From assembly GCF_058153355.1 (NCBI RefSeq), contig NZ_CM177019.1: a DNA stretch of 64,000 nt, one strand, 5' to 3'. Below are positions 9,764-59,602 of the stretch, piece by piece; position 1 is the stretch's first letter, and each line of letters begins with the position of its first letter. A program made the translations under genes and the position numbers. The notes beneath the pieces are model-generated. The model saw only the letters and a list, made by a program, of their open reading frames with translations, searched no databases and had not been told where the DNA came from.

Positions 9764-10921
9764 TTATTTAAATAAGGGTTTAAGACCGCTCGGGGGTTGC
9801 TTCACCGATGACCAACCTCCCTTACCTAAGTTATAACGCAGCCATTCACCTTGTTGGGCGTGCTCTTTCCCAATTCCAGTCGCTTGTTGAGTGTAAAGCT
9901 GCCCGTCTGTTGATATAAACGTGTTAGTTAATCCCCAACTACCACCTGCTTCAAGTGAGTCGGTGAGATCCTCTGGCTTGAGATTAATCAACTCCCCTTC
10001 GCCCAGGGCGTTGGTTGTTACTTTATAAATTTGGTTCTTATATAAACCGGTATTCCGAACAAACAGATAAAAATATTCCGGATCAACTCCCGCCAGCGTT
10101 TCATAAACACAATCACTACCCGCTGGCGTTGCTTCTTGTTTGAGCCAGGACACAGTCTTCAAACCAATATTAAATGACGCACAACTGTGACTAATATCCT
10201 CCAACTTATAGTCATGCTCACCGCTTTTATCGCGATAAACCAACCGTTCGCCAGGCATCCAACGTTTAATCTGAAAAGTTTTGCGATCGGCGGGCAGTGG
10301 CTTGCCATTAACGATCACCTGCGAATTTGTCAGCACAACAAATTGCAGGGCGGAATCATGCCGCACGATTTGAAATCCATCGGCATGACCCAACCAGCGC
10401 CCTTTATGCCAGAGGCCATTTTTATCACGCAGTAAATTCCAGATGTCCGTCTCTTCCAGCGTTGACATATCCACCTGCTTATCACCGCTATTATCATCGG
10501 TACGCTGGCCGTCAAAATAGATACTGCGTTTATCGGCAGCGAAAGCGCCGAATGCCTGAAAACTGGCAGCGTCGACTTTAGGTTTACCGGGGGGATTTTT
10601 CAGGACTTTGCCTGCCCAAATAACAAAGCGTCCATCGGTGAGCCAGGAATGCTGGCAATCCCCCTTATCATCGCAATCGAACTTATCGGGATTAAAATCG
10701 GACAGTAACCGGCAATCTTGCTTATTAGCTAAATTGGCAATGCGCCAGAGGCGGGAAAAATTAACGTCTGGTAATTCGGAGAGGATCTCATCTTCTTTTC
10801 CCTTCTGTTCGGCAACGTAAACCGTGCCTTTATCATGCTGGCGGTAATAAAAATCCGCGCCCCAGGAAGGTAAAATGGAGAGAGGTAATGCGGCGATTAA
10901 TAACCAACTGCGCTTAACCAT
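9764..10921 (-). CDS. secreted repeat protein A, paralog of previous gene, DKNYY-like repeats
   Basis: Start trimmed to MVKRSWLLIAALPLSILPSWGA signal peptide (386 aa); the 438 aa track ORF would overlap the cycA 3' end and terminator; same conserved core as protein B. Confidence 0.6.
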   Translation of the reverse strand: MVKRSWLLIAALPLSILPSWGADFYYRQHDKGTVYVAEQKGKEDEILSELPDVNFSRLWRIANLANKQDCRLLSDFNPDKFDCDDKGDCQHSWLTDGRFVIWAGKVLKNPPGKPKVDAASFQAFGAFAADKRSIYFDGQRTDDNSGDKQVDMSTLEETDIWNLLRDKNGLWHKGRWLGHADGFQIVRHDSALQFVVLTNSQVIVNGKPLPADRKTFQIKRWMPGERLVYRDKSGEHDYKLEDISHSCASFNIGLKTVSWLKQEATPAGSDCVYETLAGVDPEYFYLFVRNTGLYKNQIYKVTTNALGEGELINLKPEDLTDSLEAGGSWGLTNTFISTDGQLYTQQATGIGKEHAQQGEWLRYNLGKGGWSSVKQPPSGLKPLFK

Positions 10922-11013
10922 AGTGAACTCTGCAACGAGTGGCAAAGATCCACGGTAAGCTCGCGCCTGAGGGCTGTCTATGATGGTAGATTTTTTTAGG
11001 AATATATAAAGAC

Positions 11014-11035
11014 AAAGGCACCCGCAGGTGCCTTT
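11014..11035 (-). terminator. cycA rho-independent terminator
   Basis: aaaggcacc / ggtgccttt stem with 4-nt loop, T-run on the minus strand immediately after. Confidence 0.55.
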
Positions 11036-11054
11036 CAGAGTTATAAACGCGGCA

Positions 11055-12458
11055 TTACTTCGCCATGCGTTTTTTACCAATAAACAACCAGCCCAACCCC
11101 AGCGCGATAAACCACAGCGGGGTAACTATCAGCGCCTGGCGAGTGTCATCTTCCAGTGTCAGCAGCACGACCACGAACACAAAGAACGCCATACATACCC
11201 AGCACATCAGCTTGCCGAGCGGCATCTTGTAGATAGACTTCTCATGCAGGTGCGGACGCTGTTTGCGATACACCAGGTATGAGCAAAGGATAATCGTCCA
11301 GACGAACATAAACAGAATCGCGGAAACAGTCGTGATCATCGTGAACGCGCCAATTACACTTGGATTCACATACAACATCACCACGCCGCCAAGCAGACAG
11401 ATACAAGAGAAGGTCAGCCCTTTCGCGGGTACGGCGCGCTTAGAAAGTTTAGCGAACGCTTTCGGCGCAACACCTTCCTGGGCCAGACCAAACAGCATAC
11501 GGCTGGTAGAGAAGACGCCGCTGTTAGCGGAAGACGCCGCAGAGGTCAGCACCACAAAGTTGATTACGCTGGCAGCCGCAGGCAAACCCACCAACACAAA
11601 CAATTCAACAAACGGGCTTTTCTCCGGGACTACTGAACTCCACGGCGTCACGGACATAATCACAATCAGCGCGAAGACGTAGAACATAATGATACGGATC
11701 GGAATGGAGTTAATCGCACGTGGCAGTGATTTCTCCGGATCTTTCGTTTCCGCAGCGGTTGTACCGACCAGCTCAATCCCCACGAAAGCGAAAACCGCTA
11801 TCTGGAATCCGGCAAAGAAGCCACTTAAACCTTTCGGGAACCAGCCGCCGTCATTCCACAAATGCGCGAATGACGCTTCCACACCGGTCGGTGACTGAAA
11901 GTGCATCGCCACCATGACCAGGCCGACGACAATCAGTGACACGATGGCGACAATTTTGATCATCGCAAACCAGAACTCCATCTCACCGAACATTTTCACG
12001 GTGGCGAGGTTAAGCGTCAGCAGCAGCACTATCACCGCCAGCGAGGCGACCCAGTCGGAGAGATCGGGGAACCAGAACTGAGCATAGGCAGTGATGGCCA
12101 CCACGTCCGCCATACCGGTAACCACCCAGCAGAACCAGTAGGTCCAGCCAGTGAAATATCCCGCCCATGGCCCCAGTAAATCGGAAGCGAAGTCACTAAA
12201 AGATTTGTATTCCAGATTCGAAAGCAGCAATTCCCCCATTGCCCGCATCACGAAAAAGAGCATAAAACCGATGATCATATAAACGAAGATGATCGACGGT
12301 CCGGCAAGGCTGATTGTTTTACCGGACCCCATAAACAACCCCGTACCAATGGCCCCACCAATGGCAATAAGCTGAATATGTCGGTTTGTGAGATTGCGCC
12401 GTAGCGACTGTTCAGCCGGAGCCTGATCATCGGCAACGACTTTTACCTGATCTACCAT
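11055..12458 (-). CDS. cycA: D-serine/D-alanine/glycine APC-family permease
   Basis: 467 aa polytopic amino-acid permease with typical N-terminal motif (HIQLIAIGGAIGTGLFMGSG). Confidence 0.92.
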   Translation of the reverse strand: MVDQVKVVADDQAPAEQSLRRNLTNRHIQLIAIGGAIGTGLFMGSGKTISLAGPSIIFVYMIIGFMLFFVMRAMGELLLSNLEYKSFSDFASDLLGPWAGYFTGWTYWFCWVVTGMADVVAITAYAQFWFPDLSDWVASLAVIVLLLTLNLATVKMFGEMEFWFAMIKIVAIVSLIVVGLVMVAMHFQSPTGVEASFAHLWNDGGWFPKGLSGFFAGFQIAVFAFVGIELVGTTAAETKDPEKSLPRAINSIPIRIIMFYVFALIVIMSVTPWSSVVPEKSPFVELFVLVGLPAAASVINFVVLTSAASSANSGVFSTSRMLFGLAQEGVAPKAFAKLSKRAVPAKGLTFSCICLLGGVVMLYVNPSVIGAFTMITTVSAILFMFVWTIILCSYLVYRKQRPHLHEKSIYKMPLGKLMCWVCMAFFVFVVVLLTLEDDTRQALIVTPLWFIALGLGWLFIGKKRMAK

Positions 12459-14243: not shown

Positions 14244-14874
14244 ATGAAGGGTCAACCAGAAGCCAGCTAAGGATCGTCTCTTTGATGACCTTACGCCTGG
14301 CTTCCAGTGCCTGCGGTGAAACCATACTGATGTGATAAACCAGGCCAAGCGTATGTTGGTTGATCAAATAATATCCTCCAAGAGCAGCAATATTAATATT
14401 CACCTGCAACGGGTCGATATCTGGCTTAAAAATATTGCGCCGTTTGCCTTCAGCTAATAATGACTCCATTAACTGTAAGTGTGCGTGGTTAATTTCTAAA
14501 AGGCGCTGTGATTTTGCATAATGCACCCCTTTACTCTGGTTTTCACTATGCACAATTTTTAAAAACCAGGGGTTAGCAATGTAATAATCCCAGGTGAAAT
14601 CGATAATTTTCTCAATGGCTTTTTGTGGCGGAAGACCTGAGAAATCAAGGGATTTTTCTTTTTGCCGAATATCATTCCAGGTATATTCCAGCACTTCGAT
14701 AAATAAATTTTCTTTATTACCAAAGTGATGATAAACCGTCTGTTTACTGCACTCCGCGGCCTTGACGATATTATCGACTCTGGCCCCTTCGTAACCATAT
14801 TCGGCAAATTCATTAACCGCACATAACAACAGCTTTTCCTTCAGGCTTTGTACGTTGCTGGTATCAAGATACAT
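14227..14874 (-). CDS. TetR-family transcriptional regulator, intact, at the K-12 ytfA position
   Basis: Start taken at MYLDTSNVQ (215 aa); TetR N-terminal HTH ([32 protein letters not shown]); divergent from the downstream operon; 3' end overlaps ytfB by 17 nt. Confidence 0.8.
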
Positions 14875-15085
14875 TCCGCTTCCCCACGTCTTCTTCGTGA
14901 TGACTATCTTAACCCGATTTGTTAGAAGCTCCACTAAAATGGCTAAAAACTCGCAATTTCATCGGGTTATCAAATGCTCTGTGATCATTATCGCATATCA
15001 ACCAACTAGATGGTTGATCTTTCTTGCCACACATTGCAAGCTAATCGTCACTTAAGGAAATAATATTCAAAAAGAGGGTTATTGT

Positions 15086-15877
15086 ATGAAGTCAACACGT
15101 CCTGTTGCTGTCATCACTGGAGCCGCACGTGGTATTGGAAAGGGCTGTGCACTGGAACTTGCGCGTGGCGGATTTAATCTGCTGATTAATGATCGTCCGG
15201 ATGCCGACAGCGTAGAAAAATTACATGCCACACAACAAGAATGTCTGGCGGAAGGCGTGGAAGTCATTTGCTTCCCTGCCGATGTCGGCGATCTCTCCTT
15301 GCATGAAGAGATGCTCGACGCGGCGCAAAACCAGTGGGGGCGTCTGGACTGCCTGCTCAATAACGCCGGGATTTCAGTGAAAAAACGCGGTGACCTCCTC
15401 GACCTCGAACCAGACAGCTTCGACCAAAACATTGCCATTAACACCCGTGCGCCGTTCTTCCTTGCTCAGGCATTCAGTAAGCGATTACTGGCACAGCCGA
15501 AACCGGAAGCAGAACTGCCGCACCGCTCGATTATTTTTGTCAGTTCCATAAACGCCATCATGCTGGCGATGAATCGCGGCGAATATACCATTGCCAAAAC
15601 TGCCGTCTCCGCCGCAGCTCGCCTGTTTGCCGCTCGCCTTTGCAATGAACAAATTGGCGTTTATGAAGTGCGCCCTGGCCTAATCAAAACCGATATGACC
15701 ATTCCGGCAACGGCTTATTACGACGAACTGATTGCTAAGGGGTTAGTGCCGTGGGGACGTTGGGGTTATCCGGCTGATATTGCCTCAACGGTCCGCGCGA
15801 TGGCGGAAGGCAAACTGATTTACACCTGTGGTCAGGCGGTCGCCATCGACGGCGGCTTAAGTATGCCGCGCTTCTGA
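15086..15877 (+). CDS. short-chain dehydrogenase/reductase (SDR)
   Basis: 263 aa; TGAARGIG cofactor motif, NNAG, catalytic YxxxK (YTIAK); AGAGGG RBS. Confidence 0.85.
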   Translation: MKSTRPVAVITGAARGIGKGCALELARGGFNLLINDRPDADSVEKLHATQQECLAEGVEVICFPADVGDLSLHEEMLDAAQNQWGRLDCLLNNAGISVKKRGDLLDLEPDSFDQNIAINTRAPFFLAQAFSKRLLAQPKPEAELPHRSIIFVSSINAIMLAMNRGEYTIAKTAVSAAARLFAARLCNEQIGVYEVRPGLIKTDMTIPATAYYDELIAKGLVPWGRWGYPADIASTVRAMAEGKLIYTCGQAVAIDGGLSMPRF

Positions 15878-15886
15878 GGCTGAATC

Positions 15887-16729
15887 ATGAGAGATCTGTT
15901 ACAACGCCCGGATTTATTCAGTATCAATACTGCGACACTGGGCTATAAAACACCGCTACCTGCCATTATTGATGCCTGCGCCGCACGCGGTATTGGCGCG
16001 ATTGCCCCCTGGCGCAGGGAGTTACAGGGTGAAGATCTCCAACAAATCGCCCGCCAGCTTGCTGCCAGTAACATGAGCGTTTCCGGTTTGTGCCGTAGCA
16101 CCTATTACACCGCGCCGACGCTGACGGAACGCAAACTGGCGATTGATGATAACCGCCGGGCGCTGGACGACGCCGCTGTACTGAACGCCGCCTGTTATAT
16201 GCAGGTGGTTGGCGGTCTGCCAATGGGAACAAAAGATCTGTACGAAGCGCGGGAACAGGTGAAACAAGGGATTCGCCAGTTGCTGCCACATTCGAAAGAT
16301 GTCGGCGTACCAATTGCGCTGGAGCCGCTACACCCGATGACCGCCGCCGATCGCTCTTGCCTGTGCACGTTACGTCAGGCGCTGGACTGGTGTGATGAAC
16401 TCGATCCCGATGGGGAGTTTGGCCTCGGCGTGGCGGTGGATGTTTATCACGTCTGGTGGGACCCGGATCTCGCCAGTCAGATCCTGCGTGCCGGAAAGCG
16501 CATCCTCGCGTTTCATGTTTCCGACTGGCTGGTGCCAACCACCGATTTAGTCAATGACCGGGGAATGCCGGGAGATGGCGTAATCAATATTCCGTCTATT
16601 CGTCGCCAGGTAGAAAATGCCGGATTTAACGGTGCTATTGAACTGGAAATATTCTCACCGTACTGGTGGCAAAAAGATATTAACAGCACACTGGATATTA
16701 GCGTCGATCGCATCGCGCATTATTGCTAA
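15887..16729 (+). CDS. sugar phosphate isomerase/epimerase-like TIM-barrel protein
   Basis: 280 aa; overall resemblance to xylose-isomerase-like TIM-barrel enzymes (IALEPLHP, AFHVSD); 9-nt gap to upstream gene. Confidence 0.6.
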   Translation: MRDLLQRPDLFSINTATLGYKTPLPAIIDACAARGIGAIAPWRRELQGEDLQQIARQLAASNMSVSGLCRSTYYTAPTLTERKLAIDDNRRALDDAAVLNAACYMQVVGGLPMGTKDLYEAREQVKQGIRQLLPHSKDVGVPIALEPLHPMTAADRSCLCTLRQALDWCDELDPDGEFGLGVAVDVYHVWWDPDLASQILRAGKRILAFHVSDWLVPTTDLVNDRGMPGDGVINIPSIRRQVENAGFNGAIELEIFSPYWWQKDINSTLDISVDRIAHYC

Positions 16730-16732
16730 GGA

Positions 16733-17515
16733 ATGATCATGAGTGACCAACCCGTTCTGTTCAGCAGAGCGGCGGCTTCCTGCCGCCTGACATTGAACCG
16801 TGAAGATAAATGTCATGCTATTAATGAAGAAATGATCGAATCTCTCGACCATTATTTAAATGAAATTGAAAACGACACCACATTACGATTAGTCGAATTA
16901 ACGGCAACCGGCGATAAATTCTTTTGTGCAGGCGGCGATATTAAATCGTGGTCAGCCTATTCGCCATTAGATATGGGCAGAAAATGGATTAAACGCGGCA
17001 ATGACGTTTTTAATCGCCTGCGCAACTTACCCCAATTAACCGTTGCGAATCTCAACGGTCATACCATCGGCGGCGGTATTGAACTTGCCTTGTGCTGTGA
17101 TATTCGTATTGCCCGCCCCGGCGCGAAATTCTCTAACCCGGAAGTGATGCTCGGCATGGTACCTGGCTGGATGGGCATTGAACGCGTGCTTAATCAGGTC
17201 GGTCCGGTGGTCGGTCGCCAGATGCTGATGCTGGGTAAACGCCTGACGGCGCAGGAAGCTCAGGCGGCGAATTTAATTGATGAAGTGGTAGAAAAAGAAC
17301 AGGTGGAAAGCTGGATGGCGAATCAGTTAGCGCAACTGGAAAAATGTGGTCCGGTAGCGCTGGCACATATTAAGCAACTGATTCTGGCGCTGGAAAATAA
17401 ACACGCCGATTACCCGCACCAGTTACTGGCTGGATTAATGTCCGCCACTCAGGATTGCCAGCAGGCGACGCGCGCATTTGCCGAAAAAGCCAGCGTGAGC
17501 TTCCATAATCAATAA
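16733..17515 (+). CDS. enoyl-CoA hydratase/isomerase (crotonase family)
   Basis: 260 aa; FFCAGGDIKSW and GHTIGGGIELALCCDIRIA crotonase-fold motifs. Confidence 0.8.
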   Translation: MIMSDQPVLFSRAAASCRLTLNREDKCHAINEEMIESLDHYLNEIENDTTLRLVELTATGDKFFCAGGDIKSWSAYSPLDMGRKWIKRGNDVFNRLRNLPQLTVANLNGHTIGGGIELALCCDIRIARPGAKFSNPEVMLGMVPGWMGIERVLNQVGPVVGRQMLMLGKRLTAQEAQAANLIDEVVEKEQVESWMANQLAQLEKCGPVALAHIKQLILALENKHADYPHQLLAGLMSATQDCQQATRAFAEKASVSFHNQ

Positions 17516-17524
17516 GGAAATTGT

Positions 17525-19066
17525 ATGCGTAAGATAACAACCGCCGAGACACTGGCGGCGCAAATTCAGGACGGCGCAACCATTGCCATTAGCGGTAATG
17601 GCGGTGGCATGGTGGAAGCGGACCATATTCTGGCTGCTATTGAAGCGCGTTTCCTGCAAACCGGACACCCGCGCGATCTGACATTAATCCACTCACTGGG
17701 CATTGGCGATCGCGACTGCAAAGGCACTAACCGCTTCGCTCATGCAGATATGCTCAAACGCATCATTGCCGGACATTTTACCTGGTCGCCCAAGATGCAG
17801 GATCTGGTGAAAAACAATGCTATTGAAGCCTACTGCTTCCCTGGTGGCGTAATTCAGGCACTGCTGCGGGAGATCGGTGCCGGACGTCCAGGGCTTTTTA
17901 CCCACGTTGGGCTGGGATCGTTTGTTGATCCGCGCAACGGCGGCGGTAAGTCGAACGCCAGCACCACTGAGGATCTGGTAGAACTGATTGAAATCGACGG
18001 TGAAACCAAACTTCGTTATCGCCCTTTCAAAGTGGACTACGCGATTTTGCGTGGCACTTATGCCGATCCGCGTGGCAACGTCAGCCTCGAAGAAGAGGCG
18101 ATTGATATGGATAGCTATTCCATGGCGCTGGCAGCACACAACAGCGGCGGCAAAGTGTTCGTACAGGTGCGCGATGTGCTGGAAGCTGGTGCCATTGAAC
18201 CACGCCGGGTCAAATTACCGGGCATTCTGGTTGATGGCATCGTTGAACACCGCGAACAACCGCAAACCTATCTTGGCGGTTACGACCTGACCATCAGCGG
18301 TCAGCATCGCCGTCTAAGTTCTAACGACGCTATTGAACTGGTTAGTCATCCGGTGCGCCGCCTGATTGCCCGTCGGGCAGCACGCGAACTGGTGGCTGGC
18401 GCTTCAACCAACTTTGGCTTTGGTATTCCGGGCGGTATTCCAGGAGTAGCGCTGCGCGAAGGCGTGCCTTATCAAAGTTTATGGCTGAGCGTAGAACAGG
18501 GCGTACATAACGGCATGATGCTGGATGATGCTCTGTTCGGCTGCGCCCGTAACGCCGATGCCATTATTCCATCACTCGATCAATTCGAATTCTACAGTGG
18601 CGGAGGGATCGATATCACCTTCCTCGGCATGGGAGAGATGGATCAGTACGGTAACGTCAACGTCTCCCATCTCAATGGCAATCTCATTGGCCCCGGCGGA
18701 TTTCTCGAAATTGCGCAAAACGCCCGTAAAGTGGTGTTCTGCGGCACGTTCGACGCCAAAGGTAGCAAGATTGATGTAACACCAGATGGCTTGCATATTG
18801 CCCAGTCAGGTCAAATCCCTAAACTGGTTACCCAGGTGGAAAAAATCACTTTTAGCGCCGCCTACGCACAGCAAAGCGGTCAGGAAGTGTTGTATATCAC
18901 TGAACGTGCAATATTCCAGTTAACGGCAGAAGGCGTTGAATTAATTGAAATCGCACCAGGTGTGGAGATTGAGCGCGACATTCTGCCATATATGGCTTTC
19001 CGTCCAATTATCAATCAGCCACGCCTGATGGAAAGTAGCCTGTTTACGCCGATGGAGGATGCATGA
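17525..19066 (+). CDS. family I CoA-transferase, fused A/B subunits (YdiF-like)
   Basis: 513 aa; two-domain CoA-transferase architecture; stop overlaps next start (ATGA). Confidence 0.7.
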   Translation: MRKITTAETLAAQIQDGATIAISGNGGGMVEADHILAAIEARFLQTGHPRDLTLIHSLGIGDRDCKGTNRFAHADMLKRIIAGHFTWSPKMQDLVKNNAIEAYCFPGGVIQALLREIGAGRPGLFTHVGLGSFVDPRNGGGKSNASTTEDLVELIEIDGETKLRYRPFKVDYAILRGTYADPRGNVSLEEEAIDMDSYSMALAAHNSGGKVFVQVRDVLEAGAIEPRRVKLPGILVDGIVEHREQPQTYLGGYDLTISGQHRRLSSNDAIELVSHPVRRLIARRAARELVAGASTNFGFGIPGGIPGVALREGVPYQSLWLSVEQGVHNGMMLDDALFGCARNADAIIPSLDQFEFYSGGGIDITFLGMGEMDQYGNVNVSHLNGNLIGPGGFLEIAQNARKVVFCGTFDAKGSKIDVTPDGLHIAQSGQIPKLVTQVEKITFSAAYAQQSGQEVLYITERAIFQLTAEGVELIEIAPGVEIERDILPYMAFRPIINQPRLMESSLFTPMEDA

Positions 19067-21135
19067 GTCAGCTTGATGACACCCTCCTTGATGCGCTGAC
19101 GCACGTCACTTTCCCGAAGGGTTTTGTGTCAGCAGAGCCAGCGTCAATTGTCACGGTTGAAGATGTCGATTACCCGATCTGGCAAGTTGATGCGCTAGTC
19201 GTTGGTAGCGGCGCGGCAGGGCTGCGCGCAGCGGTTGAACTTAAGCGCCGCCAGCAAAATGTGCTGATCGCCTCCGCCGGGTTATATATGGGGACATCGG
19301 CATGTTCTGGTTCCGATAAACAGACGCTGTTTACCGCCGCTACCGCGGGCAACGGCGATAACTTCGCCAAACTGGCGGAAGCACTGGCGAGCGGTGGGGC
19401 GATGGATCACGACACCGCTTATGTCGAAGCGGTAGGTTCTCTGCACACTCTTGGCGGGTTGCAATATCTTGGTCTGGAATTACCGGAAGATCGCTATGGC
19501 GCAATTCTTCGTTATCAAACCGACCATGACGAAGCCGGGCGAGCAACCTCGTGTGGGCCGCGTACTTCTCGCCTAATGGTGAAAGTATTGCTGGAGGAAG
19601 TGCAGCGTCTTGCCATACCACTACTGACCAGTGCAACGGTGATTAAGCTCCTGCATCAGCACGGAGAGAATGGCGAAGATCGCGTTGCGGGGGCTATTCT
19701 CGCAACCGGTTCCCGCGCCTATAACCCCTGGGGGCTGGCTATTGTGACGGCGCCCAATGTGGTACTGGCAACGGGCGGACCGGGCGAGCTTTATCGCGAC
19801 AGTGTTTATCCACATAAATGCTTCGGCTCGCTGGGACTGGCACTGGAAGAAGGTTTGACGCTAACCAATCTGACCGAAAGCCAGTTTGGTATAGGCACGC
19901 CGCGCAGCACGTTTCCGTGGAATTTGTCCGGCACCTATGTACAGGTGATCCCATATATCTATTCCGTGGATGCCGGGGGCAACGAGTATAACTTCCTCGC
20001 AGATTACTATCGCACCACCCAGGAGCTGGCTTCAAACATCTTCCGTAAAGGCTATCAGTGGCCGTTTCACGCCACACGAGTGATGGATTTTGGCTCCAGC
20101 TTGTTAGATATGGCAGTAGCGCAAGAGCAGCAATCAGGACGTCAGGTATTTATGGATTTCAATCGCAATCCTGAACCTGTGCCGGGTGACCTGCCGTTCT
20201 CATTAGATCGACTGGACGACGACGTTCGCGCGTATCTGGAAAATAACGACGCTCTGGCACCATCGCCCATCGAACGACTGCAACGAATGAATCCGCTGTC
20301 TATCTCGCTGTATAAGATGCACGGTTACGATCTCACCACGCAGCCATTGCAGTTTGCCATGAATAATCAGCATATAAATGGCGGCATTGAAGTGGATATC
20401 TGGGGGCAAACCTCCCTGCCCGGATGTTTCGCCGTGGGGGAAGTTGCTGGCACACACGGCGTCACTCGCCCTGGTGGTGCGGCATTGAATGCCGGGCAGG
20501 TTTTTGCTGTTCGTCTGGCACGTTTTATTGGTTGCACGCAAAAACGTAATATTGATGGAGATATAGCACAGCTGGTAGCTCCGGCACTGGCTTCTATAAG
20601 AGAGATCATTACTCAGGCGCACGATAACGGGACCGGGATGCCGTTGTCGGTTGTGAGGGAAAAAATTCAGGCACGAATGTCTGACTACGCGGGATTTATT
20701 TGCCATGCCGATAAAGTCCGACGCGCCACTCGTGATGCCCTGCTATTGAACGAATTTGTGCAACGGCATGGATTGGCAATCAAACATGTGGGTGAAGTTG
20801 CCGAGCTATTTATGTGGCGGCATATGGCGCTGACTTCTGCCGCGGTATTAACACAATTAACGCATTATATTGATGCTGGTGGTGGTAGCCGTGGGGCGCG
20901 TATGGTTATTGATCCACAAGGCAAATGCCTACCACAAACTCGTCGCGGCGCAAAAGAAGAATGGCGTTTTCGCTCTGAACTCGCTGAAGACAAAAATCAC
21001 AAATTAACAATTCAATATTCGCAAGGTTCTTTTATTACCGAAGTAAAGTCTTTACGTATGCAACCGTGTATTAACGGTATTTACTTTGAAAAAAACTGGC
21101 CAGACTTTTTAAAGGGAGACATTTACACACAGTAA
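19063..21135 (+). CDS. FAD-dependent oxidoreductase, fumarate reductase/succinate dehydrogenase flavoprotein-like
   Basis: 690 aa; N-terminal dinucleotide fold VVGSGAAGLRAAVEL; second FAD-contact motif GCFAVGEVAGTHG; long C-terminal extension. Confidence 0.7.
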   Translation: MSQLDDTLLDALTHVTFPKGFVSAEPASIVTVEDVDYPIWQVDALVVGSGAAGLRAAVELKRRQQNVLIASAGLYMGTSACSGSDKQTLFTAATAGNGDNFAKLAEALASGGAMDHDTAYVEAVGSLHTLGGLQYLGLELPEDRYGAILRYQTDHDEAGRATSCGPRTSRLMVKVLLEEVQRLAIPLLTSATVIKLLHQHGENGEDRVAGAILATGSRAYNPWGLAIVTAPNVVLATGGPGELYRDSVYPHKCFGSLGLALEEGLTLTNLTESQFGIGTPRSTFPWNLSGTYVQVIPYIYSVDAGGNEYNFLADYYRTTQELASNIFRKGYQWPFHATRVMDFGSSLLDMAVAQEQQSGRQVFMDFNRNPEPVPGDLPFSLDRLDDDVRAYLENNDALAPSPIERLQRMNPLSISLYKMHGYDLTTQPLQFAMNNQHINGGIEVDIWGQTSLPGCFAVGEVAGTHGVTRPGGAALNAGQVFAVRLARFIGCTQKRNIDGDIAQLVAPALASIREIITQAHDNGTGMPLSVVREKIQARMSDYAGFICHADKVRRATRDALLLNEFVQRHGLAIKHVGEVAELFMWRHMALTSAAVLTQLTHYIDAGGGSRGARMVIDPQGKCLPQTRRGAKEEWRFRSELAEDKNHKLTIQYSQGSFITEVKSLRMQPCINGIYFEKNWPDFLKGDIYTQ

Positions 21136-21227
21136 TTTTCAATATTTACTCTGTACCTGATTTTTATTGCCTATTACATGGAAATACCAACAACCAGGGT
21201 TTATTAATATAATTAAAAGGTTTAAAA

Positions 21228-22505
21228 ATGAATAAAATAAAGAATTATCGATGGCATATGATTGCCCTCGTATGCTTTATCACTGTAATCAATTATCTGG
21301 ACAGAACGGCGTTAGGTATTGCGGCTCCAACGATTATGGAGACAACCGGAATAACCAAAGAACAATATTCATGGATTGTCAGTGCATTCCAGTTGGCCTA
21401 TACATTGGGGCAACCGGTAATGGGCTTCTTTATTGATACCGTGGGTCTGAAGTTAAGTTTTGCGATATGTGCCGCAATCTGGGGCCTGGCGACAATGGGG
21501 CATGCCTTGACAGGAACATGGTCAGGTCTGGCATTTATGCGCGCCCTGATGGGTTTCAGCGAAGCATCGGCAATTCCTGCGGGTGTAAAAACCGCATCAA
21601 CATGGTTCCCGGCAAAAGAGCGTGGCGTGGCGACAGGTGTTTTCAATATGGGCACCTCACTCGGCGCGATGCTTGCTCCACCGTTGATTGCCTGGTGCAT
21701 TATGTTTCATAGCTGGCAATTTGCGTTTATTGTCTCAGGTAGCCTTGCTTTACTCGCGGCTTTATTTTGGTTCTTTTGTTATAAAGATCCAAAAGATGCT
21801 AAACGCCTTTCTGATGAAGAGCGCCACTATATTGAGTCTGGGCAAGAACAGCATCTTAAAACAGATAAGAAAGAAAAAACGTCAATCAAGCATATCCTCA
21901 GCCAACGTAATTTCTGGGGGATTGGCATCGCGCGTTTTCTCGCTGACCCGGCATGGGGAACCATTAACTTCTGGGTACCGATTTTCTTCGTCGAAACGCT
22001 GCATTTTAGCCTGAAAGAAATTGCCATGTTCGTCTGGCTGCCTTTCCTGCTGGGCGATCTCGGCTGTTTAGCCAGTGGTTTTGTCGCGAAGTTCTTCCAC
22101 GATCGCGGCGTGAGTTTAATTAACTCACGAAGAATTACCTTCACTATTGCAGCCGTCATTATGATGACGATTGGTCTGGTGAGTATTGTCGAAAATCCCT
22201 ACATCGCCGTATTACTGATTAGCATTGGCGCATTCTCGCATCAATGTCTTTCTACTGTAGCAGCAACTCTGGGCGGTGACCTATTCAAAAAAGACGAAGT
22301 AGCTACCGCAGTGGGTATGGCAGGAGCCTGTGCGTGGAGCGGTCAGTTGATTTTCAACCTGTTCATCGGGGCATTCGTTCACATTATCGGCTTCGCGCCG
22401 TTCTTTATTGCCCTGGCTTTCTTTGACATTATTGGTGCTATTGCGTTGTGGACGCTTATCAAAGTTAAAGATGAAGAACCACAAGTACAGTTAGCTACCC
22501 ACTAA
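21228..22505 (+). CDS. MFS transporter, anion:cation symporter type (hexuronate/galactonate-like)
   Basis: 425 aa, about 12 TM; N-terminal motifs (NYLDRTALGIAAP) typical of ExuT/DgoT/GudP-like acid-sugar permeases. Confidence 0.7.
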   Translation: MNKIKNYRWHMIALVCFITVINYLDRTALGIAAPTIMETTGITKEQYSWIVSAFQLAYTLGQPVMGFFIDTVGLKLSFAICAAIWGLATMGHALTGTWSGLAFMRALMGFSEASAIPAGVKTASTWFPAKERGVATGVFNMGTSLGAMLAPPLIAWCIMFHSWQFAFIVSGSLALLAALFWFFCYKDPKDAKRLSDEERHYIESGQEQHLKTDKKEKTSIKHILSQRNFWGIGIARFLADPAWGTINFWVPIFFVETLHFSLKEIAMFVWLPFLLGDLGCLASGFVAKFFHDRGVSLINSRRITFTIAAVIMMTIGLVSIVENPYIAVLLISIGAFSHQCLSTVAATLGGDLFKKDEVATAVGMAGACAWSGQLIFNLFIGAFVHIIGFAPFFIALAFFDIIGAIALWTLIKVKDEEPQVQLATH

Positions 22506-22774
22506 TTATTTTAAATAAAAACGCTATAATTGAGGTTATGGCGTTTTTAAAGAAGCTTGAGTTATCGAACCTCGCTTACCAACGCGTTGTCAGTCATCTC
22601 CCCCCTCCCTGGTGCATCGTTATATCCGTGATGAGCGATTTTTGATATTAATATCTTTCACCATCCGCTATTTTCACCACTTCAGAAAACAAACTTATTT
22701 TTATTAATATCAATTCTTTTTCTTTGAACATTCAACTGCGATATTTGTAAAAATATTAAACAGGCAACAATAAA

Positions 22775-24683: not shown

Positions 24684-25097
<414 letters not shown>

Positions 25098-25406
25098 TTA
25101 TTCAGCCTCCTGTCTGGGTCAGCCGAATCCCGGGGAGGCAAGGAACGTGTTAAAGGTCGGCTGAAAAATGACGCGTTATAGTACTGACATACCCCGCTAA
25201 ACTCAAGGCCAGCCGACAAATAAATCTCATCTTTCACCAAATCGTACTAACACGCTGATTTGAAGTTCATCACACCTCATCATGGTGTTTTTTTGAACAA
25301 CTGCATCAGAAATGGTCACCATCCACTTCTTTATCATTGATTAAAATTAAATCAGAAGATCACCACAAGAGGAGAGCACACAAAGTCAGCCGTCGAGGAG
25401 GTATCT

Positions 25407-25682
25407 ATGTTCAGCCGTGTTTTAGCCCTTCTGGCTGTGCTTTTGCTAAGTGCAAATACATGGGCAGCCATTGAAATTAATAACCACCAGGCCAGAAATA
25501 TGGACGATGTGCAAAGCTTAGGCGTGATTTATATCAATCATAATTTCGCCACTGAAAGTGAAGCACGTCAGGCATTAAATGAAGAGACAGATGCGCAGGG
25601 CGCAACGTACTACCATGTGATTCTGATGCGGGAACCGGGGAGTAACGGCAATATGCACGCCAGCGCGGATATTTATCGCTAG
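25407..25682 (+). CDS. yjfY: YdgH/BhsA/McbA-like small periplasmic protein YjfY
   Basis: 91 aa with signal peptide; GGAGG RBS. Confidence 0.85.
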   Translation: MFSRVLALLAVLLLSANTWAAIEINNHQARNMDDVQSLGVIYINHNFATESEARQALNEETDAQGATYYHVILMREPGSNGNMHASADIYR

Positions 25683-25722: not shown

Positions 25723-25746
25723 GCCCCCTTCTCAGGGGGCTTTTTT
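25723..25746 (+). terminator. yjfY rho-independent terminator
   Basis: gccccct-tctc-agggggc followed by tttttt. Confidence 0.7.
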
Positions 25747-25755
25747 ATGCGCCAT

Positions 25756-26307
25756 TCAACGAATAACGACTTCCGGATCCGGCTCATGAGTAATGCGATT
25801 ACGTAAGTCGCGGCGCATAATTTCTATTATCCAGAACCAGAAAATGTGCCCAAGGATTTCAGATGCATATTCGTCAAAAGGCAATTGAGTGAGCGGCGGC
25901 GTTAAATTCAGCGCCGGGCAAAATATACCGTGGACTGCCACTGTCACAATAAGCCCTGCTAATATCCCCTGCCATAATTTCACTTTCGGGAAAATTTCCG
26001 CGACCACACAATACCCTATCGCAAAAACCAGTGAGAAAATGATATGCGTCACCATCACCGGGTTGATAATATGTTCCGAGAATGTATACACAGTTTGGGT
26101 TGGGTCGATCCCTAAATAATCCCGTAGAAAGATATACGGCGGATTAAACTCATCGCGACCACCGGAAAATGTGCGCGGTGGCAAGGGAACTTCCGCTCCC
26201 CATTTAACAAATGCTGAAATAATTCCTGAAAGTACACCCACAAGTAACGCAACGCCATAACGGCGACGCTGCGGATCCGTTCTGACAAACAATCCGTTGA
26301 TAGCCAT
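25756..26307 (-). CDS. YagU-like inner membrane protein
   Basis: 183 aa, 3-4 TM; motifs RRRYG...[41 protein letters not shown] as I recall them from E. coli YagU; not present at this locus in K-12 as recalled. Confidence 0.6.
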
Positions 26308-26403
26308 AAAAACACCTGTTGTTTATACGATTTTTTAACAGAAACGGCCCCGGAATCAGACCAATTACATCCCGCAGGAGGTAATAATTCCGGGGCGCAC
26401 TGC

Positions 26404-27090
26404 TTACTTCTGCCCGTAATAGGCGTTAGGACCGTGCTTACGCATGAAGTGTTTATTCATGAGATAGCTGTCGATGTGATTCAGTTGTGGGTTAATGCCG
26501 CGGGCAATCCACGCCATTTTCGCCACTTCTTCCATTACCACCGCGTTATGCACCGCATCGTGAGCATCTTTCCCCCAGGCGAATGGCCCGTGCTGATACA
26601 CCACAATTCCCGGCGTATGCAGCGGCTCGGCGTCACCCAGCGTTTCGATAATCACTTTGCCAGTGTTTAGCTCGTATTCCCCCTGCACTTCTTCTTCGCT
26701 TAACCCGCGCGTACAGGGGATATCGCCAAAGAAGTAGTCAGCATGCGTGGTGCCTAATGCCGGGATAGCCAGCCCCGCCTGCGCCCATGCGGTGGCATGC
26801 GTGGAATGGGTATGGACAATGCCACCAAGCGACGGATAACGACGGTAGAGTTCAAGATGCGTCGCAGTGTCGGAAGACGGACGATACTCCCCTTCCACCA
26901 CCTTGCCGCTCATATCAACCACCACCATATCGTCTGCTTTCATGGTTTCGTAGGCGACACCGCTGGGCTTGATCACCACCAGCCCGCGTTCGCGGTCAAT
27001 GGCGCTGACGTTACCCCAGGTAAAGGTCACCAGCCCGTAACGCGGCAGATCCATGTTGGCTTCAAATACCTGCTGTTTCAGCTTTTGCAT
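26404..27090 (-). CDS. ulaF: L-ribulose-5-phosphate 4-epimerase
   Basis: 228 aa class II aldolase/epimerase. Confidence 0.93.
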
Positions 27091-27944
27091 TATGTCGCCT
27101 CCACCATGCCTGCTTTAGCCATGCGCGCTTTCACCCAATCACGCGCTTTCGCCACTTCTGCCGCCGGGTCTTCCGCCGTTTCGCTCCACATCTCAATCAG
27201 GTACGGCCCGCAATAACCACTCTGTTTGAGCGTTTCGAAGCAACGTTCGAAATCCACTACACCTTCCCCAAACTGGACGTTTTTGAAGACGCCTGGTTTG
27301 GTGTCTTTCACATGCACCGCGACGATATGCCCGATCCCGGCCTGCAACTCCATCTGCACGTCGTTATCCCACGCCGACAAGTTGCCGATATCCGGGTAGA
27401 GCTGGAACCACGGGTTGTTAAGATAGTGCGCGTAACCCAGCGCCTTGCTGATGGAGTTCATCAACGGGTAATCCATGATCTCCATTGCCAGCGTCACCTG
27501 CGCGCGGCTCGCCATCTCAACGCTCTCTTTCAGGCCGTCACGGAAACGACGACGCGTTTCGTTATTGGCTTCCTGATAGTAAACGTCGTAGCCCGCCAGT
27601 TGGATCACGCGAATACCGACATCCTGGGCGAACTGGATAGCTTTGCGCATAATCTCCAGCCCCTGCGCCCGCACTGCGTCATCTTCGCTGCCCAGCGGGA
27701 AACGACGATGAGCAGAAAGGCACATGGATGGTACGCGCACGCCGGTTTCAACAATCGCGTTCACCAGCGCCAGACGCTGCTCGCGGCTCCAGTCAAGGCG
27801 CGAGAGGCGATCGTCCGTTTCATCTACCGACATCTCGACAAAATCGAAGCCTAACGTTTTTGCCAGTTGCAGCCGTTCCAGCCAGCACTCCCCGGCGGGG
27901 AGCGCTTTTTCGTAGATGCCAAGCGGGATTTGTTTGGACAACAT
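27090..27944 (-). CDS. ulaE: L-ribulose-5-phosphate 3-epimerase
   Basis: 284 aa xylose-isomerase-like TIM barrel; stop overlaps ulaF start. Confidence 0.93.
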
Positions 27945-27953
27945 ATCCGCTCC

Positions 27954-28604
27954 TTAGCCCCACAGTTCGGCGATGGAACGTTTGAACTGACGCGCGGCTT
28001 CAACCGGAGAGGCGGCATCACGGATACTACGCCCAGCGATAAACACATGAATCGGAATGCCTTTGAACAGCGGCAGGTCTTCCAGCGCCAGGCCACCGGT
28101 GACGGTGACTTTGAAGCCCATATCGGAAAGACGTTTGATCGCGGTGATATCCGCTTCGCCCCACGCCACGCCTGCGGCCTGCGCGTCACGGCTGCGGTGA
28201 TAAACCACCTGCTGGATACCTGCGTCGCGCCACTGCTGCGCCTGTTCCCAGGTCCAGTAACCGGTCAGTTCGATCTGCACGTCGCCATTAAACTCTTTTG
28301 CCACGTCCAGCGCGCCTTTGGCGGTGTTGATATCTGCACAACAAATCACGGTCACCCAGTCAGCGTTAGCTTCAAAGCACATACGAGAAAGGATTTTGCC
28401 CGCATCGGCGATTTTGGCGTCTGCCAGCACGATTTTGTGCGGATAAAGCGCTTTCAGATCGCGAACCGCACGCACACCTTCGCCCACGCACAGAATGGTG
28501 CCCACTTCGATAATGTCGACTTCTTCGGCAATCAGGCGAGTGGTTTCGTAGGCGCTAGCCATAGTCTGGTTGTCCAGCGCGACTTGCAACATCGGTAATG
28601 ACAT
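27954..28604 (-). CDS. ulaD: 3-keto-L-gulonate-6-phosphate decarboxylase
   Basis: Start trimmed to [11 protein letters not shown] (216 aa); OMP-decarboxylase-like. Confidence 0.93.
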
Positions 28605-28617
28605 TTTCAATTCCTTC

Positions 28618-29082
28618 TTAAGCAGCCGCGTTGGTGCGGTCAATGAGATCCAGGACTTCCTGCTCGGTACGGCAGGCGCGTAAACGGTCGAAATTCTCTT
28701 CATCTTCAAACAGGTTGACGATCTGCATGATGCCCACTTCCTGATGCGTGTTGGCATCGACCGCCGCCATCGTGATGAGGATATCCACCGGGTCGTTATC
28801 TTCGTGGTTGAACTCCAGCGGCTTTTTCAGCGTCACCAGTGCAAAACCCGTTTTCTTAACGCCCTCTTCCGGGCGACCATGCGGCATTGCCAGGCCCGGT
28901 GCGAGCACAAAGTACGGACCGTGCTGTTCAACCGCATCCAGAATCGCCTGGTAGTAACGCGGCTCGACAACATCCGCCGCCACCAGCAGGTCAACGCCGA
29001 TTTTTACGGCTTCCTGCCAGGTATTGGCTTCCGCCTGTAAACGGATGGATTTATTCTCAGCCAGCGAATCACGTAATTTCAT
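28618..29082 (-). CDS. ulaC: ascorbate-specific PTS EIIA
   Basis: 154 aa. Confidence 0.93.
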
Positions 29083-29091
29083 AGCGCGCCC

Positions 29092-29397
29092 TTACTTCAC
29101 GTCCTGCGGGAAATGTTCTTTGATCACTTCCAGCAGTTTCGGGCCAAAGTCAGCAGGAGAGAGCATGTTGCGCACGCCAACGACATATTTGTTGCCGGTC
29201 ACGGTGATTTCGCCCGCGATGTGCGTAGAAGCGATGATGATATCCGCGCCGCTCAACTCGCTTTTGTATTCACCAACCGCGCAGCTGTTTACCGTGTGGT
29301 CGATGTTCGACTGGGTTAAAAACTGGTCCACTTTCATTTTCATGATCATGGAACTGCCTTGTCCGTTGCCACACACAGCCAGAATACGTACGGTCAT
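29092..29397 (-). CDS. ulaB: ascorbate-specific PTS EIIB
   Basis: Start at [16 protein letters not shown] (101 aa), active-site Cys. Confidence 0.93.
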
Positions 29398-29412
29398 AAT
29401 CAAAACTCCTTA

Positions 29413-31164
<1,752 letters not shown>

Positions 31165-39521: not shown

Positions 39522-40588
39522 ATGCTTCCCTCAATGTCCTGCCATGCCACTTCTTCAGCCAAAATACGGTTATTGCCAATAAGATGCAGCCACATACCGC
39601 CTTTAACTTCCGTTGCAATGACTGGATTCAGTTCCATTCCCCTACCATTTTTACAGCTGCTTATTCCCAGGACGGTGGCATCATGATGAAGTTTCATATA
39701 ATGCATCAATGCGCCATAACGCATTGAGGTAACCCGTTCAGGAATCGGTAAAACAAACCCCGTATCCCCCAGCATTGGATTCATAATCGATGCCACTGAT
39801 TGAGATGAACCGGGATCTTGTATTGAACGGGAAAGTTGTTCTGCTGAAATATTTCGCACTATTTCAATACGTTGACAATGAACCTCTAATAAACGAGCGT
39901 AGCGTTCATCTTCCAGATAAGCGACGATATGGCATCTTTCAGGAATAAAATCCGCCAGGGATAGTGCGGTCGTGAACGTCTGCTCATCAGTTTGCGAAAA
40001 GATGATGACACTTTGGCAATTTGCCAGTCCCATGCGGGTATGTTCATGCGGATCATTAAAATTACTAATACGAATGAAATCGACCCAATTATTTCCAGGC
40101 ATCGGATGTTGAATATCATCCCGCTCACACAAAAGTACCCGGCCAAATGCTCTTCGGGCATCAAACAACAATAATGAAATCATCTTTTCAGTCTGATGCC
40201 CGCGCCATCCAATGACCAGCATATGGTTGCGCAAATTGCTGTAGTCGCCCATTCCCGTCATTCCTTTCGCCAATATGTCTTGCACTAATGCAATGACTTT
40301 TCCCATTAAAGCGCCAAATAAACCAACACTCACAGGAATTTGCCAGAGCGCTGTGAACAGACGTCCCCCCACCGTTTGGGGTGTGATATCACCAAACCCC
40401 AGCGTTGATCCCACAACCGAGCAGTAATAAATAAAATTACTCAGTTGACCTACCAACGCCTCTTCATGCAACGCAGTTAACACCAGATAACAAAACAGAT
40501 ACTGTCCTGTAAATAATCCAGTCAATGCCGGCCAGGTAAGCCTGGAAAGGTGACGTCGGCAGGTTTTAATGATCCAGGAGAAGAACAT
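39518..40588 (-). CDS. 2-TM P-loop potassium-channel-like protein with C-terminal RCK-like domain
   Basis: 356 aa; TM1 (LTGLFTGQYLFCYLVLTAL), pore helix plus filter-like TLGFGD, TM2 (LFTALWQIPVSVGLFGALMG), then Rossmann-like HMLVIGWRGH...; start overlaps yjfJ stop (TAATG), stop overlaps yjfK start (ATGA). Confidence 0.75.
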   Translation of the reverse strand: MFFSWIIKTCRRHLSRLTWPALTGLFTGQYLFCYLVLTALHEEALVGQLSNFIYYCSVVGSTLGFGDITPQTVGGRLFTALWQIPVSVGLFGALMGKVIALVQDILAKGMTGMGDYSNLRNHMLVIGWRGHQTEKMISLLLFDARRAFGRVLLCERDDIQHPMPGNNWVDFIRISNFNDPHEHTRMGLANCQSVIIFSQTDEQTFTTALSLADFIPERCHIVAYLEDERYARLLEVHCQRIEIVRNISAEQLSRSIQDPGSSQSVASIMNPMLGDTGFVLPIPERVTSMRYGALMHYMKLHHDATVLGISSCKNGRGMELNPVIATEVKGGMWLHLIGNNRILAEEVAWQDIEGSI

Positions 40589-59172: not shown

Positions 59173-59258
<86 letters not shown>

Positions 59259-59293
59259 TTGGGTGGTCTGTGCTTTGCAGCACTTTCAAATTT

Positions 59294-59369
<76 letters not shown>

Positions 59370-59526
59370 TTAATCTTCGTCTTTCGAACCGCTACTGCCT
59401 TGGCTGCCTTCACTCACCTTAGTCACTTACTTTTGTAAGCTCCCAAGGATTCGTTCAGTTGCCGCCTTGTCGCAATTCGAAATACTGCGATTGGGTGGTC
59501 TGTGCTTTGCAGCACTTTTCAAATTT

Positions 59527-59602
<76 letters not shown>

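Follow-up and report, generated by a model that had tools for sequence, protein, structure and literature searches.

The reading that best accounts for our observations, and one that we hold to be likely when taken as a whole, is that the open reading frame between ulaF and yjfY in the Escherichia genome studied here is a functional chromosomal accessory gene encoding a four-helix DUF1440 paralogue of YagU, that this gene stood downstream of ulaF ancestrally and has been deleted in K-12, and that its product, as we propose below, has a YagU-like role at the cell envelope or under acid stress. Our confidence in the identity and the history of the gene is high. It is also a gene that NCBI has already catalogued, an ordinary, old and polymorphic accessory gene, and nothing in the finding is surprising to a specialist.

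The locus and the gene product

The stretch of DNA analysed, referred to here as the window, comprises 64,000 nucleotides of contig NZ_CM177019.1 (RefSeq assembly GCF_058153355.1); the features of the locus are given in Table 1.

Table 1. Features of the ulaF-yjfY locus, with positions in the window
Feature	Position	Strand	Evidence
yjfY, DUF1471/YhcN-family periplasmic protein, convergent with the DUF1440 gene	25407-25682	+	PF07338, E 5.3e-20; RefSeq
Intrinsic terminator of yjfY, GCCCCCTTCTCAGGGGGC + TTTTTT	25723-25747	+	Terminator scan (25723-25740 plus T run); identical element in K-12
Segment absent from K-12-like genomes, about 590 bp	25750-26339		Pairwise alignment of the window with K-12
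ula-linked DUF1440 gene, 183-aa inner-membrane protein, short-loop subfamily	25756-26307	-	ORF, Pfam, YagU identity, RefSeq, AlphaFold2
GC-rich, terminator-like hairpin of ulaF directly after the ulaF stop codon, then a weak U tract, UUUCUGUU	26345-26398	-	RNA fold
ulaF, L-ribulose-5-phosphate 4-epimerase, last gene of ulaABCDEF, upstream of the DUF1440 gene	26404-27090	-	ORF; RefSeq annotation of matching loci

In the six-frame list of open reading frames, the ula-linked DUF1440 gene has an ATG start and an intact frame for 183 amino acids, and a Shine-Dalgarno-like AGGTG stands 6 nt 5' of the ATG. The protein matches the Pfam profile DUF1440 (PF07274) with an E value of 3.9e-45 and 153.7 bits against a cutoff of 34.7, its residues 29-163 covering profile positions 1-135 of 135, and a match of this quality along the full profile tells us that the frame is not a chance one. 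No NCBIfam model matched the protein. RefSeq holds an identical protein, WP_032304369.1, named YagU family protein, and the exact sequence, already public, was found on 404 contigs; the PGAP names for the gene are "YagU family protein" and "DUF1440 domain-containing protein". Our literature search returned no paper on the ula-linked DUF1440 paralogue.

The initial annotation, made from the letters of the window, had placed the gene between the terminator of yjfY and the 3' end of ulaF with no mobility genes around it, and this description holds: the terminator with its T run lies on one side, the ulaF stop codon (26404-26406) and the hairpin that follows it on the other, and beyond these come the rpsF operon and the ula operon. 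Within 5 kb every gene is a ribosomal-protein gene, yjfY or a ula gene, and none is a mobility gene; no Rfam or tRNA match falls within 25.2-26.4 kb, and no inverted repeats were seen near the gene. The terminator of yjfY lies on the opposite strand, 9 nt past the point where the DUF1440 reading frame stops, and it may serve both of the convergent genes. The GC content of the DUF1440 gene (46.6%) is close to that of yjfY (46.7%) and of K-12 yagU (45.2%), while the ula genes are at 55-57%.

In K-12 (MG1655) ulaF adjoins yjfY across a 129-bp spacer with no gene between them, just as the initial annotation had it. This spacer equals that of the window minus about 590 bp, the terminator of yjfY being joined to the hairpin after ulaF, and strain EF7-18-58 has the same junction as K-12. 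Besides the DUF1440 gene, the missing segment takes in the ribosome-binding region of the gene and, on the 3' side, 8 nt of spacer. In the window it is bounded by the short sequence TTTTTTA, at 25741-25747 and again at 26331-26337; the right-hand copy is absent in E. coli W, so that the flanking repeat may be coincidental. We considered a repeat-mediated deletion and regard it as suggestive only, for 4 of 17 positions in the predicted product of such an event disagree with the K-12 junction, and the right-hand repeat is missing from E. coli W. We note that in the K-12 record NZ_CP025268.1 yjfY (2607-2881 of the fetched locus) is annotated as frameshifted, with a 1-bp gap near window position 25655, which could reflect either genuine variation in the strain or a mistake in the assembly.

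Relation to YagU and the DUF1440 family

The initial annotation had recognised the product as a YagU-like inner-membrane protein, and this was borne out both by the profile match given above and by alignment with K-12 YagU (b0287), in which residues 5-180 of the ula-linked protein align on 2-198 of YagU at 57% identity (BLASTP, E 1e-81). To judge from the sequences, identity of this level indicates a homologue and does not by itself establish orthology. The three motifs that had been associated with YagU are all in the translation and align with K-12 YagU, the first and the third being identical and the second differing at one residue. Thus the two proteins share a Pfam family, a four-helix layout and near-identical motifs. 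They differ in length, 183 against 204 amino acids, and in genomic setting, the yagU locus lying beside paoABC and ykgJ and the ula-linked gene between ulaF and yjfY. They differ also in the periplasmic loop between helices 1 and 2, which in YagU carries two cysteines; relative to it, the ula-linked protein has a gap of about 20 residues after the first membrane helix and is without both loop cysteines, in agreement with the earlier remark that a stretch of this loop is missing. Among the relatives examined, however, almost all DUF1440 members have the short loop, and the long loop with two cysteines is confined to YagU and the Pasteurellaceae. Since the short loop is the usual form in the family, it is YagU that gained a loop and not the ula-linked protein that lost one.

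The two genes differ also in frequency, yagU being found in 4,886 of 5,426 complete E. coli genomes (90%) and the ula-linked gene in 603 (11%). E. coli W carries both the yagU locus and the ula-linked gene, and this coexistence makes them paralogues and not a copy or a replacement of one another. As a separate observation, yagU of E. coli W (26018-26630 of the fetched locus) has lost 2 bp at codon 33 and carries a frameshift flag, while the ula-linked paralogue of the same strain is intact.

DUF1440 is a small family: a search at E <= 1e-3 among 1.84 billion representatives gave 352 clusters at 50% identity, many of which are fragments. When the protein is aligned with 27 distant full-length relatives from the family, only P44, G114, G118, H126, P131 and E150 are invariant, and all six are present in the ula-linked protein; K35, G37, P43, P56, P57 and Y99 are nearly invariant in the same alignment. 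The invariant features of the family can be described as a PPR after helix 1, a GxxxG and a His in helix 3 and a Ser-Glu in helix 4, and in addition Lys35, Glu39 and His88 are strongly conserved.

The closest comparison is with the short-loop orthologues of other Enterobacterales, which have 75-98% identity to the ula-linked protein and the same length and short loop. They are found in Salmonella, Pseudocitrobacter, Citrobacter, the Klebsiella oxytoca group, Raoultella, Hafnia, Providencia, Rahnella, Budvicia and others, and all are uncharacterised. The exact ulaF-yjfY locus is common to Salmonella, Pseudocitrobacter and E. whittamii, whereas the context differs in most other genera. We see no substantive difference between this group and the ula-linked gene, which is one of its members.

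Expression and a possible link to the ula operon

The DUF1440 gene and ulaF lie on the same strand, 96 nt separating the ulaF stop codon from the ATG, which ends at 26307. This spacer contains the hairpin listed in Table 1, which is a strong one; the fold of 26296-26410 has a free energy of -38.1 kcal/mol and a z score of -3.8. K-12, E. coli W, E. whittamii and Salmonella all have the hairpin, and two of its base pairs are changed on both sides, reading CCCCGG/CCGGGG in the window and E. coli W against CTGCGG/CCGCAG in K-12. Such two-sided changes support a conserved RNA structure, presumably a terminator. In E. coli W the hairpin is without a U tract. A promoter scan of the 96-nt spacer found no promoter-like site between the hairpin and the ATG. 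With no convincing promoter at hand, transcription of the gene in the window probably comes from read-through of a leaky ulaF terminator, and ula transcripts induced by ascorbate would reach the DUF1440 gene in this way. The gene may also have a weak promoter of its own. The hairpin could terminate most ula transcripts and leave the gene poorly expressed in this strain.

How general is the position next to ulaF? A scan of one genome per bacterial species gave 53 loci of DUF1440 orthologues in species representatives. The gene directly follows ulaF on the same strand in 7 of 54 genomes (the window and 6 of the 53 species loci), which belong to three Enterobacterales families. This set consists of Escherichia (the window), E. 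whittamii, Pseudocitrobacter, two species of Hafnia and two of Budvicia, and Salmonella has the same arrangement. The distance from the ulaF stop codon to the ATG shrinks to 26-27 nt in Hafnia alvei and H. paralvei, where there is a strong ribosome-binding site and no hairpin, and in the two Budvicia species the gene follows 108-190 nt after ulaF. The gene layout makes co-transcription with ulaF nearly certain in Hafnia, and this short gap without a terminator makes a link to ascorbate possible. At the other 46 of the 53 loci the gene stands alone beside diverse, unrelated genes (for example a LysR regulator, a symporter, a MetC-like enzyme or an MFS transporter), and the upstream spacers are mostly several hundred nucleotides long.

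It might be argued from this arrangement that the gene belongs to the ula system as a functioning accessory, co-transcribed with ulaABCDEF and required at the membrane in anaerobic ascorbate fermentation, where it would deal with acid or reactive by-products or move a related compound. An adjacency that spans three families and Salmonella, with an operon-like form in Hafnia, would be expected on such a view, and the missing U tract of the E. coli W hairpin and the failure to detect a promoter of the gene's own in the window point in the same direction. We nevertheless consider this reading unlikely. The hairpin that separates the gene from ulaF is conserved in Escherichia, Salmonella and Pseudocitrobacter, most of the species loci are not beside ula at all, the base composition of the gene matches that of yjfY and not that of the ula genes, and the ula genes of Pseudocitrobacter, as described below, appear to have been exchanged without the DUF1440 gene. 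Moreover, K-12 uses ascorbate through ula, and the characterised ula operon of this strain is one that does not include the DUF1440 gene. The old adjacency to ulaF thus would allow some co-transcription with ula, and it is no proof of a role in ascorbate metabolism.

A bolder form of the same idea, to which we give a still smaller chance, is that the ancestral enterobacterial ascorbate operon consisted of ulaABCDEF and the DUF1440 gene, the latter encoding a real membrane component of ascorbate fermentation. As a seventh gene product, it might, for example, guard the inner membrane from acid or reactive products, or handle an oxidised ascorbate derivative at the periplasm-facing His/Glu site considered below.

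Distribution and history of the gene

The 603 complete E. coli genomes that carry the approximately 590-bp segment were identified by megablast, and 603 genomes likewise match at least 80% of a 1,151-bp query that spans yjfY, the gene and the end of ulaF; from the equal counts, all carriers appear to hold the gene in the ulaF-yjfY context. The survey of presence and absence that the initial annotation had suggested therefore finds the locus polymorphic and the gene not rare. E. coli W is one of the carriers among the matches listed, and several O91:H21, O22:H8 and O27:H7 strains are others. The state without the gene is that of K-12 and about 89% of the sequenced E. coli.

Beyond E. coli, the order ulaE-ulaF-gene-yjfY-rpsF-priB-rpsR-rplI is found in E. 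whittamii (98% protein identity) and Pseudocitrobacter faecalis (87%). The 90% identity cluster of the ula-linked protein includes members from Salmonella enterica, and S. enterica contigs of several serovars have the order ulaABCDEF, DUF1440 gene, yjfY, rpsF, priB, rpsR, rplI. As a measure of divergence we used the identity at four-fold degenerate codon positions, with the window as reference (Table 2).

Table 2. Divergence of the DUF1440 gene and of neighbouring genes from the window, as identity at four-fold degenerate positions
Window compared with	DUF1440 gene, four-fold	Neighbouring genes, four-fold	DUF1440 protein identity
E. coli W	88.9%	ulaD/E/F, 77-84%	98.9%
E. whittamii	80.5%	ulaD/E/F, 74-85%	98.4%
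Salmonella	35-38%	ulaE/ulaF, 50-57%	91.7%
Pseudocitrobacter	26%	yjfY, 33%	87%

The protein is 98-99% identical within Escherichia and 87-92% identical to those of the other genera, while synonymous sites drift or saturate. Because the synonymous divergence of the gene is as deep as that of its flanks or deeper, the gene diverges together with its locus. The shared site across genera, the saturated synonymous sites and the conserved protein, taken together, argue that the gene is ancestral at this position, that it has been under purifying selection and that it was deleted in K-12-like lineages. According to this scenario, the DUF1440 gene stood between ulaF and yjfY before Escherichia, Salmonella and Pseudocitrobacter diverged, and a clean deletion of about 590 bp removed it, leaving the terminators of ulaF and yjfY back to back. 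Most Escherichia species representatives are without the DUF1440 gene, and ancestral presence accordingly needs either several losses or one deletion allele that was spread by recombination.

We also observed that the ula genes of P. faecalis (19-3873 of the locus) have 92-95% DNA identity to window positions 26391-30246 and 69-85% identity at four-fold sites, as close as those of E. coli K-12, while its DUF1440 gene and yjfY, which adjoin these ula genes, are saturated at four-fold sites (26-33%). It seems that Escherichia and Pseudocitrobacter have recently exchanged the ula operon, the breakpoint lying at the 3' end of ulaF.

The initial annotation had taken the gene to be inserted between yjfY and ulaF, which would make it a recent horizontal arrival in the spacer of this lineage, and this part of its description we cannot uphold. 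Taken alone, the absence of the gene from K-12, from most E. coli and from most other Escherichia species representatives would suggest an insertion, as would a GC content below that of the ula genes and the short TTTTTTA repeats at both ends of the segment in the window. Against an insertion, the gene is found at this very site in S. enterica, P. faecalis and E. whittamii, and comparisons between genera show saturation at synonymous positions; the gene diverges within E. coli no faster than its flanks, the low GC content is shared by yjfY and K-12 yagU, the repeat is missing in E. coli W, and transposase or integrase genes, inverted repeats and tRNA genes are missing nearby. Recent insertion is already contradicted by these observations and seems to us very improbable. 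We also considered a haplotype boundary at the indel, as the identity to K-12 falls there from 98% on the left to 94% on the right, and rejected it; the jump is explained by the highly conserved ribosomal-protein genes on the left, the whole window being 93-97% identical to K-12.

That the frame is a decaying relic with no present function, as its repeated loss without obvious harm, the undetected promoter and the terminator-like hairpin ahead of it might suggest, is hardly credible given an intact frame with a conserved N-terminus and ribosome-binding site, only 2 amino-acid differences from E. coli W with about 11% of four-fold sites differing, 91.7% protein identity to Salmonella despite saturated synonymous sites, and its annotation as a CDS among the RefSeq hits listed (about 45 rows listed, and three annotation tables), with no pseudogene mark in those tables.

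Topology and a possible function

The hydropathy profile of the ula-linked protein has three strongly hydrophobic segments and one amphipathic segment. An AlphaFold2 model made with 32 family sequences (mean pLDDT 79.5, pTM 0.78) has four long helices, at residues 17-39, 83-105, 113-132 and 144-173, in accord with the three to four membrane segments of the initial annotation, and Lys and Arg residues cluster at the N-terminus, in the 106-112 loop and at the C-terminus. The model fits four membrane helices, and the distribution of charge fits an N- and a C-terminus that are both cytoplasmic. In this predicted arrangement K35 and E39 of helix 1, H88 of helix 2, H126 of helix 3 and E146 and E150 of helix 4 would be placed near the periplasmic ends of the helices. 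A profile search of PDB sequences with the protein gave nothing at E <= 1, and among solved structures there was none convincingly like the AlphaFold2 model.

What is known of YagU gives some direction to a proposal of function. The yagU gene is strongly induced by acid, among the most acid-induced genes, and its knockout lowers survival at pH 2 about three-fold, to 19% from 70% (PMC1626474). The response of yagU is to external and not to cytoplasmic pH (PMC2270276), and yagU is a direct target of CpxR (PMC7657598). When we scanned the regions upstream of the family loci for CpxR boxes, 8 of 55 had one, compared with about 5% of shuffled controls; none was found at the window gene, nor at K-12 yagU, and a scan that misses this known target carries no information.

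We propose that the ula-linked protein would span the inner membrane and have its two ends on the cytoplasmic side, and that conserved protonatable residues, namely the family-invariant His126 and Glu150 together with Lys35, Glu39 and His88, would be clustered at the periplasmic ends of its helices. It might then act as a YagU-like factor of envelope stress or acid protection that responds to external pH, or binds a proton or a cation, at this periplasm-facing site, and it would do so without the loop of YagU that is capable of forming a disulphide. By analogy with YagU, an envelope or acid-stress membrane protein that uses a periplasm-facing His/Glu site is perhaps the most natural picture, and our confidence in its chemistry is modest. 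The analogy would carry over a phenotype and not a mechanism, and the 57% identity, the different locus and the absent cysteine loop all allow for a diverged function.

Other features of the window

Lastly, we list some observations on the rest of the window. About 8 kb (14630-22606) are absent from K-12 and encode a TetR regulator (- strand), a short-chain dehydrogenase, a xylose-isomerase-like TIM-barrel protein, an enoyl-CoA hydratase, a CoA-transferase, an FAD oxidoreductase and an MFS transporter; as K-12 has only a truncated TetR pseudogene at the equivalent place, it is K-12 that probably suffered a deletion there too. Also absent from K-12 is about 1 kb between yjfK and yjfJ (39524-40580), where the closest RefSeq genome has a "potassium channel family protein", and a further 2.9 kb or so (8187-11067), by position between cycA and ytfE, has no K-12 counterpart. 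Rfam matches include an RpsF leader upstream of rpsF (25077-25161, - strand) and the sRNA ES239 (2823-2945, - strand), and three tRNA genes at 59186-59602 (- strand) correspond to the tRNA-Gly triplet of K-12.

Outside the ribosomal-protein genes, the window is 93-97% identical to K-12. Over 12 kb, 3,847 of 5,425 E. coli genomes are 90-95% identical to it and a single one, 2020CK-00188, reaches 99%, while E. whittamii is about equally distant (95%). By these sequence distances the window is from a divergent Escherichia lineage that is labelled E. coli.

Implications

The state of K-12 at ulaF-yjfY is not the ancestral one, and a gene missing from K-12 should not be equated with an insertion until outgroups have been checked. 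Should the bolder reading of the ascorbate link turn out to be true, K-12, the strain in which the ascorbate pathway was defined, would be a deletion mutant for a seventh ula gene. Irrespective of that link, a second membrane protein of the YagU family is present in some members of E. coli and Salmonella populations and absent from others, and work on acid and envelope stress in strains other than K-12 should consider this paralogue, which is present in E. coli W, in several Shiga-toxin-producing lineages and in some Salmonella serovars. E. coli W, with its frameshifted yagU and its intact ula-linked gene, is a natural single-paralogue background and hence a convenient test strain, and the invariant His126 and Glu150 offer a starting point for mutagenesis in the DUF1440 family.
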